NCBI GenBank assembly: GCA_017304675.1
Contig: JAFKLS010000020.1
Location: 54,300 to 118,299, forward strand
Origin: Sphingobacteriia bacterium
GTDB taxonomy: Bacteria > Bacteroidota > Bacteroidia > Chitinophagales > Chitinophagaceae
DNA length: 64,000 nucleotides
Direction: 5' to 3'
In this document: one piece after another, positions 34,319 through 57,141 of the stretch
Layout: each line of letters begins with the position of its first letter
Position numbering within the stretch: position 1 is the first letter of the stretch
Position numbers and translations under genes: made by a program
The notes under the pieces: generated by a model
Database searches by the model: none
Seen by the model: the letters and a program-made list of their open reading frames with translations, nothing else
Told to the model about the DNA's origin: nothing

Positions 34319-34343
34319 AAAATTCCCCTTTAGGGGTTAGGGG
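34319..34343. repeat. C4/G4 mini hairpin element (CCCCTTTAGGGGTTAGGGG), abutting the lpxB start codon
   Basis: AAATTCCCCTTTAGGGGTTAGGGG. 21 of 24 nt are identical to 56153-56176. It is related in reverse complement to the CCCCTGAAGGGG copies. Confidence 0.75.
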
Positions 34344-34344
34344 T

Positions 34345-43608: not shown

Positions 43609-44943
43609 TTATTTTTTAGTTTTAAATTCTACTCTTCTGTTCTCTGCTCTGCCTTTTACTGTTTTGTTATCGGCAACTGGCTGAGAAGAACCAAAACCTG
43701 CAGCACTTAATCTTTCAGCGGCAATACCATTTTTCACAAAATAATCTTTTACTGCATCAGCACGTTTTTGAGATAATGCAAGGTTTGTTTTATCAGAACC
43801 TGTATTATCGGTATAACCTTCAATAATCAAATTCAAAGAAGCATGGTCTTTTAATATAGTAACGGCTTTATCAAGTTCTGCTTTAGCCACTTTTGTTAAT
43901 ACGGCAGTGCCTGTAGCAAACTGAACCTGTTTGTAGTTGAAGCCAAAGTCTTTAATTTCAGGGCAACCTGCATTAGAAGCTGGTCCTTTTTCAGTAGGGC
44001 ATTTATCTTCTTCATCGTTTACACCATCACCATCGGTATCAGGGATAGGACAACCCTGGTAACGTGCAACACCGGGTACAGTAGGGCATTTATCTTCTTC
44101 ATCGTTAATACCATCACCATCGGTATCAGGAATTGGGCAACCTTGGTATTTTGCCACACCCGGTACGGTTGGGCATTTGTCGTTCTCATCATTAATACCA
44201 TCACCATCGGTATCAGGAACAGGACAACCCTGGTATTTTGCCACACCCGGTACAGTAGGGCATTTATCCTGATCATCAGGAATACCATCTTTGTCTGTAT
44301 CTACCACAACTGGAGCCGGAGGTGGTGGTGGAGTTGGAGCCAACACAGGAGCAGCTTTTTTCTCAGTTAATGGTGATGAGAAACCTAGAGAATAATGGAA
44401 ATTATAGTTAGAAAGATCACTAACTCTTAAATGGTAATTCCATTGCAGGTTAATAAAAGAACCTTCGCCTAATTTAAATTGTAAACCGGTTCCAACAGGA
44501 ATATACGCATAATAATATGTACCTCCTACCATACCAGCACCAACACCGGCAGACAAATAAGGTACTACCGCATAGTTATCTGTTAACAGTTTTAAGTTAA
44601 CATTGGCATCTGATTCTAGTAAGAACTTATCGGTTCCAACCTTTGTTCCATTATAAAAAGGGTAGTTTACAAAAGTGCCATGCAAACTGGCCATAAAATC
44701 AATGTAATCGTTCAATCCCTGAAAATAGGATATAGACATACCCGGATTCATATTAGATACTTTATTCCAGCTACCATCTCTTAACACAGAGCCTAATCCA
44801 TTCTGGCCGATCAAATCCGGAGTTACATAATCTTTCAAAAAAAAGTTGATGCCTAATGTAGGGCGTTTTGTTAAGTCTGTTTTTTGGCTAAATGCAATTA
44901 CTGTCGAAAATAATACCACCAGTAAAGAAGCAATTTTTCTCAT
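43609..44943 (-). CDS. OmpA family outer-membrane protein with thrombospondin type-3 repeats
   Basis: An N-terminal beta-barrel, a Pro-rich linker, repeated DKCPTVPGVAKYQGCP.PDTDGDGINDE units, and a C-terminal OmpA domain (NTGSDKTNLALSQKRADAV). Confidence 0.85.
   Translation of the reverse strand: MRKIASLLVVLFSTVIAFSQKTDLTKRPTLGINFFLKDYVTPDLIGQNGLGSVLRDGSWNKVSNMNPGMSISYFQGLNDYIDFMASLHGTFVNYPFYNGTKVGTDKFLLESDANVNLKLLTDNYAVVPYLSAGVGAGMVGGTYYYAYIPVGTGLQFKLGEGSFINLQWNYHLRVSDLSNYNFHYSLGFSSPLTEKKAAPVLAPTPPPPPAPVVVDTDKDGIPDDQDKCPTVPGVAKYQGCPVPDTDGDGINDENDKCPTVPGVAKYQGCPIPDTDGDGINDEEDKCPTVPGVARYQGCPIPDTDGDGVNDEEDKCPTEKGPASNAGCPEIKDFGFNYKQVQFATGTAVLTKVAKAELDKAVTILKDHASLNLIIEGYTDNTGSDKTNLALSQKRADAVKDYFVKNGIAAERLSAAGFGSSQPVADNKTVKGRAENRRVEFKTKK
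44002..44290. repeat. 87-bp tandem repeat, about 3.3 copies, encoding the TSP3 calcium-binding units
   Basis: Units start at 44002, 44089, 44176 and 44263 and are roughly 85 percent identical by eye. Confidence 0.8.
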
Positions 44944-47386: not shown

Positions 47387-48703
47387 TTACAAGTGATTTA
47401 CTGAGGCTCCCAATTTTTGCAAATGCTCATAAAAGTTGGGATACGATTTATTGATGGCATTCGCTTCTTCAATTGCTGTATTGCCTTCTGCTCTTAACGC
47501 TGCGACAGCACAAGCCATTGCAATACGATGATCGTGACGAGAATGCACTGTTGCTCCTTTCAATCCGTTGCCACCTTTTATCATCATCAGGTCATCCTGC
47601 AATTCTATTTCAACACCTAACTTTTTAAATTCTTCCTGTAAGGTTAATCCTCTGTCACTTTCTTTATGCGCCAATCTTGAAACACCTTCTATCACTGTTG
47701 TTCCTTCGCAATAAGATGCTAATGCAACAAGCGGCGGAAATAAATCCGGACAATCAGTTGCATTAAAATGAAATGCTTTACCCCTAGCCCCTGAAGGGGG
47801 ATTAGAGATTTCAATTTCATTATCTCTAATAGAAATTTTGCAACCACAATCTTGCAAAGCTTCAATAATTTTTTTATCTGCCTGTGTTGATTGAATATCT
47901 AATCCTTTCACTACAATCCCATTTTGTGCAGCAACAGCACCAGCCACTAATAAAAATGCACCTCCACTCCAATCGCTTTCAACAGTGTAATTGACAATTG
48001 ACAATTGACGATTGACAATTGACGATTGAAAAATAAATTTTTCATAATTATGATTAACCGGAACATTCAAACCGAAGTCTTCCATCACTTTTAGAGTGAG
48101 ATCAACATAAGGTTTGCTCTTCAGATTATTCACTGAAATACTAACACCATCAGCGTTTGAAGCCGCATAGGCCAACAAAAATCCTGTTAAGAATTGAGAA
48201 CTTAAACTGCCATCGATTGTGATGTTTTTTGGTTGTAACGGACCTTTTACAACTAACGGAAGTTTCCCTTGATTCGATTGAATGAAAACATCTAACTGCG
48301 GAAGAATTTCATCAAAAAAATTCATCGGCCTTGTTGTTAAACTTCCCGAACCGTTGATCGTAATTTCACTTGAACTCAATGCAACCAATGGTGTGAACAT
48401 TCTAATGCTTAATCCGCTTTCACCACAATTGATAGATATAGGTGAATGGTGAGTGGTGAATGGTGAATGAATAATAGCATTCGTGCTATCTATCAATAAT
48501 TGACCATTTACAATTGACCATTCACATCCCATTTCTTTAATGATGCTTAACGCCGCTTTATCATCGTTACTGATGCCGGGATTATGTATGATTGATTTTC
48601 CTTTTCGCACCAAAGCCGCCGCACATGCCCTTTGCATAGAGCTTTTAGATGCAGGTGCAGTAATGGTTCCGGAAACAAATGAAGGTTGTATTTGAACGAT
48701 CAC
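47387..48703 (-). CDS. aroA: 3-phosphoshikimate 1-carboxyvinyltransferase (EPSP synthase), carrying three mini-repeat segments
   Basis: APASKSSMQRA, LAHKESDR and HDHRIAMA are present. At 438 aa it is longer than I expect for the family. Confidence 0.9.
   Translation of the reverse strand: MIVQIQPSFVSGTITAPASKSSMQRACAAALVRKGKSIIHNPGISNDDKAALSIIKEMGCEWSIVNGQLLIDSTNAIIHSPFTTHHSPISINCGESGLSIRMFTPLVALSSSEITINGSGSLTTRPMNFFDEILPQLDVFIQSNQGKLPLVVKGPLQPKNITIDGSLSSQFLTGFLLAYAASNADGVSISVNNLKSKPYVDLTLKVMEDFGLNVPVNHNYEKFIFQSSIVNRQLSIVNYTVESDWSGGAFLLVAGAVAAQNGIVVKGLDIQSTQADKKIIEALQDCGCKISIRDNEIEISNPPSGARGKAFHFNATDCPDLFPPLVALASYCEGTTVIEGVSRLAHKESDRGLTLQEEFKKLGVEIELQDDLMMIKGGNGLKGATVHSRHDHRIAMACAVAALRAEGNTAIEEANAINKSYPNFYEHLQKLGASVNHL
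47781..47800. repeat. C4/G4 mini hairpin element inside aroA
   Basis: CCCCTAGCCCCTGAAGGGGG, encoding PPSGARG. It shares the 11-mer CCCCTGAAGGG with 55558 and 56067. Confidence 0.75.
47989..48030. repeat. Heptamer tandem array, AATTGAC x6 (42 bp), inside aroA
   Basis: AATTGAC AATTGAC AATTGAC GATTGAC AATTGAC GATTGAA, encoding QSSIVNRQLSIVNY. Confidence 0.85.
48431..48472. repeat. Heptamer tandem array, AATGGTG family (42 bp), inside aroA
   Basis: GATAGAT ATAGGTG AATGGTG AGTGGTG AATGGTG AATGAAT, encoding HSPFTTHHSPISI. Confidence 0.75.
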
Positions 48704-49725: not shown

Positions 49726-49753
49726 GGTCAATAGTCAATAGTCCATTGTCAAT
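49726..49753. repeat. Heptamer tandem array (GTCAATA, the AATTGAC family in reverse complement), intergenic
   Basis: GGTCAAT AGTCAAT AGTCCAT TGTCAAT. Confidence 0.65.
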
Positions 49754-49770
49754 ATTTATGAATCAACGAT

Positions 49771-49798
49771 CGTGGACTGTCGACCGTTGACCGTTAAC
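49771..49798. repeat. Heptamer tandem array (CGTTGAC family), intergenic
   Basis: CGTGGAC TGTCGAC CGTTGAC CGTTAAC, ending at the stop codon of the upstream gene. Confidence 0.65.
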
Positions 49799-50941: not shown

Positions 50942-51020
50942 AAGTCAAAATTCAAAAGTGAAAAGTCAAAACCCAAAGCAATAAACTTTTTCTTTTCACT
51001 TTTGCCTTTTTACTTTTTAT
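50942..51020. repeat. Inverted pair of heptamer arrays (GTSAAAA x5 / TTTTSAC x5) forming a long hairpin
   Basis: GTCAAAA TTCAAAA GTGAAAA GTCAAAA CCCAAAG, then CTTTTTC TTTTCAC TTTTGCC TTTTTAC TTTTTAT. The perfect 13-bp core is CAAAAGTGAAAAG (50953-50965) pairing with CTTTTCACTTTTG (50992-51004). Confidence 0.75.
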
Positions 51021-52676: not shown

Positions 52677-52828
52677 ATTCTGTTTTTAAAATTTGCGGCA
52701 AAGGTAACTAAAACCACTCCGTTGCCCTGTTTTATTTAGTAAAGTGTTGTTTAGCAAGCTTTTACCTTCATGGCATCGCCTGTTGCGTCGCACTCTTCAA
52801 CGCTTTGAACTTTACTTGTCAATTTTTT

Positions 52829-52898: not shown

Positions 52899-53627
52899 TT
52901 ATTGTAAAAATTTCCTCCAATTATTTTTCCAATAAGTTGAATAATCAAAGCCATGCTCACCTACTCGCTCAATTGTTTTCACAATATTTTCTTTAACCAT
53001 AGCTAATTGATTGTTATTAATCTTATAAATTATACCGTTTTTTGGTTCATATTTTTTATTCCTCTCAGAATAAATTGCAAATTGAAAAATTACACCCAGC
53101 TCTATTCTTTTATAATTTTTAATCTGGAATAAATGAGATACAAATTGTCCACTTTTTTCAGGTTGATAATCAAAAAACAACCCTAAATCCTTATCTATTA
53201 ATTGCATTTTTTGTTCATCAAATTCTTTTCCTGTATAAGTAAGATCATAATAAATTGAATCATTCAAATCTCTTGTCGAATATTCCCCACTTGAAACAAA
53301 TATGTTGTTTTGTGGATTAAAAAGATAAACATCATAACTTAATTTCTGCCAAACAGCAATATCAGGGAATCCGTTTTTATCAATATCTATACTTCTAATA
53401 TATTTCGCAGCATCAAAAAAAGAATCAATGGTCTTCCATTTATTGTTTTCAAATTTTTCAATTACAACATTTTCTTTTGTAGTATCCTCCAAGCGAATTT
53501 TAAATTTTACTTTATTAACATAAAATGTATCTCCTTTTACAGAAGGCCAATGAAAATCACTTGCTTGCCCTTTGCAAAAAGGATTGCAAAAAGTAAAAGT
53601 CAATAGTATCGTAAATACTTTTTTCAT
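52899..53627 (-). CDS. Hypothetical secreted protein, AT-rich, inserted within the aromatic gene cluster
   Basis: 242 aa. Signal peptide MKKVFTILLTFTF and one DIDKNGFPDIAV (FG-GAP/VCBS-like) segment. No family recognised. Confidence 0.5.
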   Translation of the reverse strand: MKKVFTILLTFTFCNPFCKGQASDFHWPSVKGDTFYVNKVKFKIRLEDTTKENVVIEKFENNKWKTIDSFFDAAKYIRSIDIDKNGFPDIAVWQKLSYDVYLFNPQNNIFVSSGEYSTRDLNDSIYYDLTYTGKEFDEQKMQLIDKDLGLFFDYQPEKSGQFVSHLFQIKNYKRIELGVIFQFAIYSERNKKYEPKNGIIYKINNNQLAMVKENIVKTIERVGEHGFDYSTYWKNNWRKFLQ

Positions 53628-53641
53628 TTTCCACTTTCCAT

Positions 53642-54535
53642 TTACTTAATAATTTTTCTGATCTTATTTGCCTTCTCCATCAGCTCATTTAAAAATTCAA
53701 GGTTCTCTTTTTCCAAAGCGCTTTTAAATTTCCTGAGTTGAGAAATATGTTCATTTAAAACATCCAATACATTTTCTTTGTTCTGCATAAAAATCGGCGC
53801 CCACATAGCTGGATTACTTTTTGCCAAACGAACGGTGCTTTCAAAACCACCACCGGCCAATTCAAAAATGGCATCTTCTTCTTTTTCTTTCTCTAAAACC
53901 GTATTCGCCAAAGCAAAAGAAGTGATGTGTGAAATATGGCTTACATAAGCCGCATGCATATCGTGATCATGTGCATTCATATACACCAAATGCATTCCCA
54001 ATTCTTTATAAATATTTTCAACAATCTCAACTGCTGTTGCATCACTTTTTTCTTTTTCACAGATCACACAAGCCCTGCCTGCAAACGCATTTTGCACAGC
54101 TGCTTCCGGACCACTATATTCTGTTCCCCACATAGGATGTGTTGCAACAAATCTTTTTCTGTTTGCATGATTTTCTAAAGCCTCGCATAAAGCAAATTTT
54201 GTAGACCCCGCATCCACCACAATTTGTTTGTCATTCACCAAATCCATTATTTGTTGCATAATAGGAATGGTAGCATCAACAGGAATGGCCACATAAATCA
54301 AATCAGCTTTTTTAACGGCTTCTTCCAAAGGCAATACTTCATCTACCAAATTCAATTGCAACACTTTTTGCTTTGTTTCTTCTCTATTGCACACACCAAT
54401 GATATGCGATGCCAACTTTTTATTTTTTAAAGCCAACGCAAATGAACCACCAATTAATCCAACACCCACGACACAAACTGACAATTGAGAATTGACAATT
54501 GACAATTGGAGATTATTATCTGTACTATTTGTCAT
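53642..54535 (-). CDS. tyrA: Prephenate dehydrogenase
   Basis: The Rossmann segment VVGVGLIGGSFALAL and HPMWG are present. The first ~18 codons are encoded by a heptamer array, so the true start is uncertain. Confidence 0.85.
   Translation of the reverse strand: MTNSTDNNLQLSIVNSQLSVCVVGVGLIGGSFALALKNKKLASHIIGVCNREETKQKVLQLNLVDEVLPLEEAVKKADLIYVAIPVDATIPIMQQIMDLVNDKQIVVDAGSTKFALCEALENHANRKRFVATHPMWGTEYSGPEAAVQNAFAGRACVICEKEKSDATAVEIVENIYKELGMHLVYMNAHDHDMHAAYVSHISHITSFALANTVLEKEKEEDAIFELAGGGFESTVRLAKSNPAMWAPIFMQNKENVLDVLNEHISQLRKFKSALEKENLEFLNELMEKANKIRKIIK
54476..54517. repeat. Heptamer tandem array, AATTGAC family, encoding the tyrA N-terminus
   Basis: AACTGAC AATTGAG AATTGAC AATTGAC AATTGGA GATTATT, encoding NNLQLSIVNSQLSV. 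Confidence 0.8.
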
Positions 54536-54581: not shown

Positions 54582-54887
54582 CTATTTACAATCAGAATTA
54601 AGGCTTTCAAAGAGCTTTTGATCCAAATAACCTGATTGATGCAATAATTCTAACCAATATTCAGTTTCATTTGCTTCTTTCAGTGCAATTGATAATTTAT
54701 GAATAAAATCAGTTTTACTTTGAGCTTGTTCTGCTTCTCGAATATTTGCTCCAATTGAAGTTCCACTTCGCAACAATTGCTTTGACAAAATATGTTCTTG
54801 CTTCTCCGAACACAAATATTGATTGCATTTAACTATTCTAAGTGCAAAGGCAAAACTTTTCTCTTTTAAAATATTTTCTTTCTTCAT
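54582..54887 (-). CDS. Four-helix-bundle protein (23S rRNA intervening-sequence protein / Avd family)
   Basis: About 101 aa. SFAFALRIVK...QLLRSGTSIGANIREA...F..KLSIALKEANETEYWLELL is the TIGR02436/PF05635 pattern. ATG at 54887. Confidence 0.8.
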   Translation of the reverse strand: MKKENILKEKSFAFALRIVKCNQYLCSEKQEHILSKQLLRSGTSIGANIREAEQAQSKTDFIHKLSIALKEANETEYWLELLHQSGYLDQKLFESLNSDCK

Positions 54888-54888
54888 T

Positions 54889-54916
54889 GTCAATTATCAA
54901 TTGTCAATTTTTAATT
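54889..54916. repeat. Heptamer tandem array GTCAATT (inverted relative to 54476-54517)
   Basis: GTCAATT ATCAATT GTCAATT TTTAATT. It spans the gap between the aminotransferase stop and the four-helix-bundle start. Confidence 0.75.
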
Positions 54917-56121
54917 CTTCTGATTGCTTCTTCAAAACGCTCAATACTTCCGCACAAACTCACTCTTATATAACCATCTCCTGCCGTTCCAAAAATTCCA
55001 CCCGGAGTGATGAACACATTTGAGTTGTATAAAACTTCATCACTCAATTCATATCCGTTTTTATATGTTGAAGGGATCTTTGCCCACACAAACATTCCAA
55101 CTTGTTTTGTAGAATATTCACATTGCAATAGATCCAACAATTCAAAAACCTTTGTTCTTCTTTCTGTGTAAATTTTATTCACGCTATCGTACCAATCTTT
55201 ATCCAAGCTCAACGCTTTTGCGGCAGCCAATTGTACCGGCAAGAACATACCGCTATCCATATTGCTTTTAAACTTCAATACTTCATCAATTCTTTCTTTA
55301 GCACCACACAACATACCAACACGCCATCCCGCCATATTAGATGATTTACTTAATGAGTTTAATTCTAACACAACATCTTTTGCGCCATCTACACTCAACA
55401 AACTTTTAGGATTATTATTCAAAATAAAACTGTAGGGATTATCGTGAATGATGAGGATATTATTCTTCCTCCCAAATGCAACAATTTTTTTAAACAATGC
55501 ATCATTAGCATTTTGTCCGGTTGGCATTTGCGGATAATTCACAAAAAGCCCCTTAATCCCCTGAAGGGGAAATGATGAAATCAATTTTTCTAATTCAGCA
55601 AAATCGGGTTCATAATTATTTTCTTCTTTTAAATTATAATATACAGGCGTAGCTCCTGAAAGCTTTACTGCACTTGAATAAGTTGGATATCCAGGATTGG
55701 GCACCAATACTCCCACTCCTTCTTCAAAATACGTCATACAGATATGCATGATGCCTTCTTTACTTCCAATCAATGGCAAAATTTCTGTATCCGCATTCAA
55801 CTCAACATTGTACCATTTCTTATACCAATCCTTCACTGCATTTCTCAATACAGGAGAACCTTTGTAAGATTGATAAGCATGAACATTAGGCTTTGCGCTT
55901 TCTTCCTGCAACACTTTTATAACATCAGGGTGTGGTGGTAAATTCGGACTACCAATTCCCAAATTGATGATATTCTTTCCTTGCTTATTCAACTCATCAA
56001 TCTCTCTTAATTTTTGAGAGAAGTAATATTCGCCTATACCTTCTAAACGTTTGGCCACCCCCCACCCCCCTGAAGGGAGAGTTAATATAGATTCTGTTTC
56101 GCTTGTTGTATTTGATTTCAT
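54904..56121 (-). CDS. Class I/II PLP-dependent aminotransferase (probable aromatic/aspartate aminotransferase of the operon)
   Basis: SLSKSSNMAGWRVG (PLP lysine) and NPGYPTY are present. It carries two mini hairpin elements. Confidence 0.85.
   Translation of the reverse strand: MKSNTTSETESILTLPSGGWGVAKRLEGIGEYYFSQKLREIDELNKQGKNIINLGIGSPNLPPHPDVIKVLQEESAKPNVHAYQSYKGSPVLRNAVKDWYKKWYNVELNADTEILPLIGSKEGIMHICMTYFEEGVGVLVPNPGYPTYSSAVKLSGATPVYYNLKEENNYEPDFAELEKLISSFPLQGIKGLFVNYPQMPTGQNANDALFKKIVAFGRKNNILIIHDNPYSFILNNNPKSLLSVDGAKDVVLELNSLSKSSNMAGWRVGMLCGAKERIDEVLKFKSNMDSGMFLPVQLAAAKALSLDKDWYDSVNKIYTERRTKVFELLDLLQCEYSTKQVGMFVWAKIPSTYKNGYELSDEVLYNSNVFITPGGIFGTAGDGYIRVSLCGSIERFEEAIRRIKN
55549..55569. 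repeat. C4/G4 mini hairpin element inside the aminotransferase
   Basis: CCCCTTAATCCCCTGAAGGGG, encoding FPLQGIKG. Confidence 0.75.
56055..56077. repeat. C4/G4 mini hairpin element inside the aminotransferase N-terminal region
   Basis: CCACCCCCCACCCCCCTGAAGGG, encoding LPSGGWGV. Confidence 0.7.
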
Positions 56122-56152
56122 AAATAATTTATGATAATTTTTATAAATGTTT

Positions 56153-56176
56153 AAATTCTCCTTTAGGGGTTAGCGA
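56153..56176. repeat. C4/G4 mini hairpin element overlapping the pheA stop codon
   Basis: AAATTCTCCTTTAGGGGTTAGCGA. 21 of 24 nt are identical to 34320-34343. Confidence 0.75.
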
Positions 56177-56997: not shown

Positions 56998-57005
56998 AAA
57001 TTAAA

Positions 57006-57028
57006 AATCCCGGCTTTTGACCGGGATT
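57006..57028 (-). promoter_or_regulatory. Attenuator terminator hairpin immediately upstream of pheA
   Basis: On the minus strand the RNA reads AAUCCCGG-UCAAAAG-CCGGGAUU, followed by UUUAAUUU and then the pheA AUG at 56997. Confidence 0.6.
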
Positions 57029-57054: not shown

Positions 57055-57141
57055 TTACGCTTTTACAAATACTACCCGGCTACTTGGTTTAAAGTAGTAA
57101 TAAAAAAAATAAAAGAAAGTATTTGCAATTGTTTGTTTCAT
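57055..57141 (-). CDS. Phe/Tyr-rich leader peptide of the aromatic operon (28 aa)
   Basis: My own codon-by-codon translation gives MKQTIANTFFYFFYYYFKPSSRVVFVKA followed by a stop. Nine consecutive aromatic codons lie 27 nt upstream of a terminator hairpin. Confidence 0.6.
   Translation of the reverse strand: MKQTIANTFFYFFYYYFKPSSRVVFVKA

Follow-up and report, generated by a model that had tools for sequence, protein, structure and literature searches.

Ogata et al. in 2000 reportedly described Rickettsia palindromic elements (RPEs), repeats of 100-150 bp that are confined to Rickettsia, also occur between genes, and sit in frame in conserved protein genes at surface positions of the products; the short dispersed repeats (SDRs) of Nostoc and other cyanobacteria, said to have been reported by Elhai et al. 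in 2008, are 21-27 nt long, have hairpin potential and are inserted at orthologous sites that include open reading frames (ORFs), in genomes that are reportedly also rich in tandem heptamer repeats. RPEs are mentioned in PMC1458961 as well. Repetitive extragenic palindromic (REP) sequences are short, GC-rich hairpin repeats that are dispersed and mostly extragenic, with an inverted doublet, the REPIN, as the mobile unit (PMC3116915, PMC6006769). Genes for REP-associated tyrosine transposases (RAYTs) of the Bacteroidetes subclass 2.6 have atypical REPs on their flanks, weakly structured and without GTAG, and REPs inserted in frame into genes are also reported (PMC6006769). A role in translational regulation has been proposed for TAACTGA heptamer repeats that lie just 5' of start codons in Beggiatoaceae, cyanobacteria and some Bacteroidetes (PMC4679880). 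Here we analyse a 64,000-nt stretch of a Sphingobacteriia bacterium genome from the Chitinophagaceae (contig JAFKLS010000020.1; hereafter the window, numbered from its first nucleotide), in which the 11-mer CCCCTGAAGGG occurs three times in an aromatic amino acid operon. We find that this 11-mer is the core of one arm of a dispersed inverted-repeat family in Chitinophagaceae, similar in kind to REPINs and miniature inverted-repeat transposable elements (MITEs), that on balance is probably spreading and tolerated where it is harmless; the sequence family was not found described in the searchable literature.

CCCCTGAAGGG lies on the plus strand at 47788, 55558 and 56067, three exact copies against an expectation of 0.01, and none of 100 dinucleotide shuffles reaches that number; the window is 37% G+C and holds only 74 C-runs and 48 G-runs of four or more. 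These figures bear out a first-pass annotation, which had called the recurrence unexpected on qualitative grounds and had correctly described a second C-run ahead of each copy, translation in two reading frames, and the encoded peptides. All three copies lie under minus-strand ORFs and, in gene orientation, read CCCC-TTCA-GGGG-N(1-5)-GGGG: CCCCCTTCAGGGGCTAGGGGT in aroA (PPSGARG), CCCCTTCAGGGGATTAAGGGG in an aminotransferase gene (FPLQGIKG), and CTCCCTTCAGGGGGGTGGGGGG in the same aminotransferase ORF (LPSGGWGV). The arms at 34325-34344 and 56158-56175 are additional to these copies and bring the number in the window to five, two of them in-frame singlets, two forming a decayed doublet and one a singlet next to lpxB:

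34325-34344, plus strand: singlet arm CCCCTTTAGGGGTTAGGGGT, ending 1 nt before the lpxB ATG (34345).
47780-47800, minus strand: singlet arm in aroA (ORF 47387-48703), encoding P302-G308.
55549-55569, minus strand: singlet arm in the class I/II aminotransferase ORF (54904-56121).
56058-56079, minus strand: sense arm of the intercistronic doublet, CTCCCTTCAGGGGGGTGGGGGG, running into a GTG that aligns with the ortholog start.
56158-56175, plus strand: decayed partner arm, CTCCTTTAGGGGTTAGCG, antisense to the operon and overlapping the pheA stop codon.
56058-56175, no strand assigned: the whole doublet of 118 nt (arm, 78-nt AT-rich spacer, arm), filling the pheA/aminotransferase junction.

The lpxB arm sits in a divergent intergenic region adjoining a gene for a BlaI-type repressor, and presence or absence differs among close relatives at four of the five sites. 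Rfam searches of the whole window and of 46-57.5 kb place no family on any of the arms, whether the cut-off is the gathering threshold or E ≤ 5.

The arm recurs across Chitinophagaceae and in many metagenomes. It is ≈22-26 nt long and GC-rich, with the consensus aaCTCCCC-TT(T/C)A-GGGG-N-T-R-GGGG(G)-(c/t)at, and a generic pattern, CCC-N3-6-GGGG-N2-4-GGGG, has 40 matches in the 1.36 Mb that make up 80 Chitinophagaceae aroA loci plus the window, compared with 1 in reversed sequence. The best species representatives share 74-76% AroA identity with the window; the closest relatives fetched are L201, L202 and L203 (L-numbers denote fetched loci or contigs), and the L202 aminotransferase is 90% identical to that of the window. 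A strict pattern, CTCCCCTTYAGGGGNTRGGGG, scanned across metagenome stretches and IMG/VR, is found in at least 120 metagenome stretches (at least 139 instances) and in 41 IMG/VR stretches; the metagenome sample is unbiased, and every figure taken from it below refers to the matches listed. Arm density reaches 13-30 per 100 kb in element-bearing contigs and averages ≈3.5 across the aroA loci, with ≈0.8 outside the aromatic operon in the average species. The first-pass view that the conserved entity is a nucleotide element and not a peptide is upheld by copies that are intergenic, occupy three frames and both strands, and occur in many genera. The strict motif is also present in a GC-rich conserved context, tttctctc..cctttCTCCCCTTCAGGGGNTGGGGGcgggg.., in L106, L129, L135, L181 and L195, from human gut and other metagenomes; this is probably a conserved locus of other phyla with no relation to the family.

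Arms are arranged in a strongly non-random way. Among arms less than 400 nt apart, 49 pairs are divergent (a reverse-complement arm, then a sense arm), 21 are tandem, and only 1 is convergent. The doublets measure 60-300 nt, with AT-rich spacers of 6-271 nt that are not conserved between genomes, and ≈37% of arms lie in recognisable doublets. In 16 of the 49 pairs the two arms have the variable inter-G spacer in common, where 6.0 would be expected (p < 0.0005). Folding of intact doublets gives stems of 20-25 bp, with z-scores of -5.4 to -14; mismatches between arms, ≈8 G·U and 4 A·C by eye, are too few to use. Contig L104 carries two copies of one 125-nt doublet that are 89% identical, spacer included, and their similarity stops exactly at the outer arm ends. 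What had been annotated as a very small dispersed element is indeed dispersed and tolerated in loops, but the ≈20-nt motif is usually one arm of a 60-300-nt doublet. The idea that the doublets are mobile promoters was rejected, as 39 doublet spacers hold just one forward and two reverse TAnnTTTG boxes and thus lack the -7 promoter element of Bacteroidetes. Sense arms also form short tandem arrays (L104, 2332-2434, and L097, 1641-1691, with periods of 41 nt and 30 nt), the L104 unit consisting of an arm and the adjoining end of the doublet spacer.

Placement relative to genes was scored for the 139 strict-pattern instances. Twenty-eight lie in sense orientation 1-30 nt (mostly 1-6 nt) 5' of the ATG of an ORF of at least 80 codons, and 19 are in sense orientation at the 5' end of an open frame; 11 overlie the 3' end of a gene on the opposite strand, where the TAA of the arm is the stop codon, and 5 are antisense at the 5' end of an opposite-strand frame. 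Only 16 are found in the middle of a coding sequence (CDS), 12 in sense and 4 in antisense orientation, the remaining 60 occupying other intergenic sites or contig ends; ≈88% of instances are therefore outside mid-CDS positions. Arms lie 0-6 nt from upstream stop and downstream start codons and sometimes supply them. At the aroB/aroA junction, for example, the basal arrangement is TAA-N-GTG, while about seven species have an arm in the gap, with the ATG of ...GGGGCATG as the start codon. The genes 3' of arms are diverse housekeeping genes. Coding copies are in surface loops where basal orthologs are shorter, and in some genes, e.g., in L124, L130 and L179, a whole doublet of ≈100 nt is translated.

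The aroA arm of the window illustrates this. In gene orientation it reads (AAT) CCC CCT TCA GGG GCT AGG GGT and stands just 5' of the segment encoding the conserved NATDCPD. In a codon alignment, basal AroA orthologs are 4-5 residues shorter, with I-E-I-G-P-x-P-L-K-A-F where the window has I-E-I-S-N-P-P-S-G-A-R-G-K-A-F. An intact arm occupies the site in five lineages (the window, L002, L005, L009 and L035), about a dozen lineages carry an insert of the same length in which the C and G runs are lost, and the short state is found in three nested species (L003, L007 and L072). L201, L202 and L203 lack the arm, which within this close group is confined to the window. Empty orthologous sites, which the first-pass annotation had proposed looking for, thus exist both here and at the pheA/aminotransferase junction of L202; distant orthologs with the same peptide, which that annotation had named as a refuting outcome, exist as well, but at the DNA level these carry the same element, intact or decayed. 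An AlphaFold model of AroA (mean predicted local distance difference test score, 89) places residues 301-311 in a coil that separates two strands (296-300 and 312-314); within it, the arm-encoded residues 302-308 are modelled as the turn of a β-hairpin. Two other AroA loops derive from tandem heptamer DNA (window 47975-48041 and 48440-48469), (TTGACAA)n encoding SIVNRQLSIVN and (TTCACCA)n encoding HSPFTTHHSPI, and orthologs have other heptamer-like peptides in the same loops (PINQSTNQPIN, SEITNQKSQIE and LPTPDSRL). Three loops of this essential enzyme, EPSP (5-enolpyruvylshikimate-3-phosphate) synthase, are repeatedly refilled by repeat-derived sequence across the family, which provides a natural map of insertion-tolerant positions.

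The internal aminotransferase arm, (TTT) CCC CTT CAG GGG ATT AAG GGG, is also located in a loop and is read in a frame different from that of the aroA copy, to give FPLQGIKG. Orthologs without the arm have K-TDLSKVKLMF at this position, and a clade with a longer loop has KLxxExx-FPLQG[IV][KR]G; in L202 the arm has decayed to TCA CAT CAA TCA ATT AAA GGC, and in L203 an arm supplies the aminotransferase stop codon. The 56067 copy falls within a 21-codon N-terminal extension that is missing in most orthologs, which start M-x-T-A-K-R-L-E-G, and the arm is followed immediately by a GTG that aligns with the ortholog start. Because of these two features, the copy is probably intercistronic or part of a lineage-specific extension and so not truly coding; the earlier placement of all three copies inside CDSs applies to the aroA and 55558 copies but probably not to this one. 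At the same junction L202 has TAA-TTT-ATG, and the window and L201 have the ≈118-nt doublet instead; therefore, the 56067 copy and the arm at 56158 are the two ends of one doublet. An in-frame ATG lies in its spacer at 56121, and the TTA at 56170-72 in the decayed arm reads on the minus strand as TAA, the stop codon of pheA. The long hairpin of this doublet is weak (z = -1.4), consistent with decay, and in run X14 a strain variant carries a restored CCCC at 56159. The spacer weakly resembles the original junction between the pheA end and the aminotransferase start (score 44, against a shuffle mean of 33.7; p ≈ 0.04). Arms give rise to spurious N-terminal extensions, of which the aminotransferase and tyrA ORFs are examples, and shift real start and stop codons, and gene callers and ortholog alignments in Chitinophagaceae are systematically misled by them.

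The usual unit begins with a reverse-complement arm that closely follows a stop codon and ends with a sense arm that closely precedes the start codon of the next gene, the two being separated by an AT-rich spacer; the intact unit, when single-stranded, is predicted to fold into a long hairpin, the architecture of a REPIN or MITE. Units are duplicated within genomes, and they are gained, lost and left to decay at orthologous sites; we propose that they persist only where they do little harm, namely in intercistronic bases and in the surface loops of proteins. Survival limited to harmless positions would mean that arms in tightly packed operons must abut stop and start codons, where an arm can bring in an ATG (GGGGGCATG) or a TAA of its own; in loops, a single arm of 7-8 codons or a whole doublet is translated in whichever frame is open. 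The AroA and aminotransferase arms of the window would then be in-frame passengers, alongside one decayed doublet and one arm in the lpxB leader. The spread is likely to be transposition-like and driven in trans, with most copies neutral or selfish, and a candidate for the mobilising enzyme is a Bacteroidetes RAYT or other HUH protein acting on single-stranded hairpins. If such an enzyme were tied to the family, this would provide a cognate repeat for an HUH class whose substrates are poorly defined. Small cassette genes (the 23S rRNA intervening-sequence protein gene and DUF559) were considered as drivers and set aside, as they adjoin arms just in isolated cases. In L017 (1180-1960), a gene for DUF559 (a Vsr-like endonuclease fold) lies between direct repeats of a related arm, CCCACCCCAAACCCCTCCCGGGAGGGGATAGCCCG; a sister repeat family may serve a small cassette here.

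Several observations weigh against a spreading, largely neutral element. A regular-expression search for HUH and Y motifs gives no matches in 2.5 Mb of loci, a weak test for a gene normally present about once per genome, and the supplements of PMC6006769 do not contain the motif. Arm pairs 400-3500 nt apart enclose, in a limited sample, ordinary genes or no long ORF, and no transposase-like ORF. The flanks show no target-site duplication of the sort the first-pass annotation had suggested checking for, either at the L104 copies or at the window doublet set against the empty site of L202, which agrees with HUH-type transposition without proving it. The window strain also occurs in bioreactor and other metagenomes, and public sequencing runs that carry it (≈100% identity, even depth; runs labelled "RNA?" are indistinguishable from DNA) reveal no indel at any window arm and no insertion polymorphism. 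The 4-5 bp C4/G4 hairpin attributed to single arms can form, but single arms fold no better than shuffles (z = -1.0 to +0.8). Some patterns hint at function or targeting and not at pure drift: about a third of the arms adjoin a start codon in sense orientation, the 3:1 sense excess inside CDSs (12 versus 4) is unexplained by stop codons, the same loops and junctions are occupied in many genera, and arms are ≈6-fold enriched in the aromatic operon, as detailed below. A further hint is the aminotransferase arm, an island of nucleotide conservation whose eight codons are nearly identical in the window, L201 and L203, with third positions in the two relatives matching at 7/8 and 8/8, versus 58-61% at identical residues gene-wide.

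A rival reading is that the doublets are functional intercistronic RNA modules, with single arms and coding copies as their remnants. The paired arms would mask initiation until a terminating ribosome melts the stem, which would couple translation without a Shine-Dalgarno sequence, or they would act as a processing or stabilising hairpin. We regard this as possible but doubtful. It draws on the placement of arms 0-6 nt from stop and start codons in an almost always divergent geometry, on the very stable stems of intact doublets, and on spacers that are unconserved between genomes and without promoter boxes; heptamer arrays share these junctions and this inverted geometry, the operon in which arms are enriched is long, polycistronic and biosynthetic, and both the sense bias in CDSs and the conserved aminotransferase arm nucleotides are in keeping with it, as is the proposal that heptamers 5' of start codons regulate translation (PMC4679880). 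An insertion into a gap of 2-10 nt, however, must abut both codons, and a selection filter gives the same geometry. Moreover, orthologous junctions are empty in most species, close relatives included; many arms are singlets or lie in CDSs or in promoter-proximal leaders, such as that of lpxB; and the window's own doublet is decayed. A functional role of intercistronic doublets is compatible with selfish spread and does not exclude it.

A broader form of this idea, which we hold to be unlikely, is that arms and heptamer arrays together make up a general, Shine-Dalgarno-independent operon device of Bacteroidota that is mobile and donates start and stop codons. If so, a stem reaching from one stop to the next start would couple the translation or RNase processing of each cistron to that of the previous one, and a selfish repeat family would have become a reusable piece of operon architecture. 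The tight stop/start placement is of note for gene expression in a phylum that rarely uses Shine-Dalgarno sequences.

The window itself points to an aromatic connection, since four of its five arms are in the aromatic operon, and the first-pass annotation had tied the 11-mer to aromatic-pathway genes. Of the 40 arms in the 80 species, 35 fall in the interval from -8.3 to +2.3 kb relative to the aroA start and 5 outside it (p = 3.6e-6, an optimistic value, as sites that are orthologous among related species do not count as fully independent), and in different species arms precede pheA, the aminotransferase gene, tyrA, the DAHP (3-deoxy-D-arabino-heptulosonate 7-phosphate) synthase gene, aroB, aroA and aroC. 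A cis-regulatory site specific to this operon, e.g., for a repressor or for a protein like the trp RNA-binding attenuation protein (TRAP), is nevertheless very improbable. Just 2 of the 120 metagenome loci (L189 and L192) carry aromatic-operon genes, against ≈0.4 expected, and the genes downstream of arms have many unrelated functions, which largely refutes such a regulon; furthermore, no junction is consistently occupied across species, and the operon already has a Phe/Tyr-rich leader peptide and a terminator. Arms are 5-8-fold enriched in the aromatic operon, yet the family is not specific to it.

Other inserts and leader elements accompany the arms in this operon. The pheA leader looks like a classical aromatic-operon attenuator: a 28-codon leader ORF, MKQTIANTFFYFFYYYFKPSSRVVFVKA, which includes nine consecutive Phe/Tyr codons (window 57055-57141, minus strand), lies 5' of pheA, and a GC hairpin with a T-run (57003-57028, minus strand) stands directly before the pheA ATG, a layout kept in L201 and L202; Rfam gives a weak Phe_leader match (E = 0.26). 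The first 19 codons of the tyrA ORF are a heptamer array (54476-54528), and the Pfam domain begins at residue 20. Between the aminotransferase gene and tyrA is a gene for a 100-residue 23S rRNA intervening-sequence protein (PF05635, E = 5e-28; 54582-54884, minus strand), bracketed by inverted (AATTGAC)n arrays at 54476-54506 and 54886-54916 (31 nt, 84% complementary) in a geometry that recalls rRNA intervening sequences; L201-L203 lack the gene at this junction. Inverted pairs of heptamer arrays, AAAAGTG/CACTTTT and CAACGGT/ATTGAC, fill the junctions between the DEAD-box helicase and DAHP synthase genes (50942-51018) and between the DAHP synthase gene and aroB (49726-49798) in a geometry like that of the G-rich doublets, where relatives have other arrays or none. 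A 242-residue ORF between tyrA and the DEAD-box helicase gene (52899-53627, minus strand), with a signal-peptide-like N-terminus and no Pfam match, is missing at the same position in L201-L203, and in L203 an MNT/HepT toxin-antitoxin pair is inserted between the helicase and DAHP synthase genes. The 5' leader of the helicase gene contains a conserved motif, GAAGAGTGCGACGCAAC...GATGCCATGAA (52765-52798, minus strand), with no Rfam match, that is also present in L036, L059, L143, L177, L198, L202 and L203, where it sometimes adjoins arms, and that may be an undescribed leader RNA. Elsewhere in the window, a repeat finder reports three tandem 87-nt units, 81-87% identical, at 43994-44301.

Over-representation both within and between genes, with inverted pairs often downstream of genes as for DNA uptake sequences, might suggest another genome-wide signal, either for uptake or for orienting replication or recombination; we give this little credence, as the density is low (≈0.8 per 100 kb outside the operon, 13-30 in element-rich contigs), orientation tracks the neighbouring gene and not one DNA strand, and whole units are duplicated with their spacers. 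A selected peptide motif (P-S/L-G-x-x-G turns) is hardly credible although many orthologs carry related peptides (PSGVRG, PLGLRG and FPLQGVRG) at matching loop positions, and chance no more so at 0.01 copies expected, as both are refuted by the same nucleotides between genes, on both strands and in three frames, with rare GGG and CCC codons throughout and decayed copies that retain loop length while losing motif and peptide.

The inverted-repeat family that we favour shares with REPs and REPINs a short, GC-rich, dispersed and often intercistronic repeat, inverted doublets with a long hairpin, the lack of a target-site duplication, and occasional in-frame insertion in genes. As in REPINs, the inverted doublet appears as the replicating unit (49 divergent pairs versus 1 convergent; the L104 duplication). 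It differs from them in having no 5' GT[AG]G or CGTC tag, the consensus flank being aaCT...cat, in an arm stem of 4-5 bp followed by a second G-run, in spacers of 6-271 nt, and in that no RAYT gene is linked to it in the loci examined. Like MITEs, the units are 60-300 nt long and non-coding, have terminal inverted repeats and an AT-rich interior, and are present in multiple copies per genome; unlike MITEs, they have no target-site duplication and an interior that differs from genome to genome, and the limited sample of distant pairs yielded no parent insertion sequence whose ends match. The arms resemble TAACTGA-type repeats in lying a few nt 5' of start codons, in forward orientation and in phyla where Shine-Dalgarno sequences are rarely used, and the junctions and loops taken by G-rich arms in the window and its relatives are also sites of heptamer arrays. 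Those repeats, which include short tandemly repeated repetitive (STRR) sequences, are tandem 7-nt arrays, however, whereas the family is a C4-loop-G4-N-G4 hairpin arm that holds at most GGGGTTA-GGGG(T), or ≈1.5 heptamer units, and the heptamer arrays of the window are a separate family. In behaviour the coding copies also come close to the cyanobacterial SDRs, which, as reportedly described, belong to another phylum and are unrelated in sequence. In-frame insertion in conserved genes at surface positions, said to be characteristic of RPEs, is seen in the AroA turn and the aminotransferase loop, although here the coding copies are mostly single 21-nt arms (7-8 residues), occur in Bacteroidota and are unrelated in sequence. 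Taken together, the family resembles a REP/REPIN- or MITE-like repeat with RPE-like coding insertions, and not a new kind of element.

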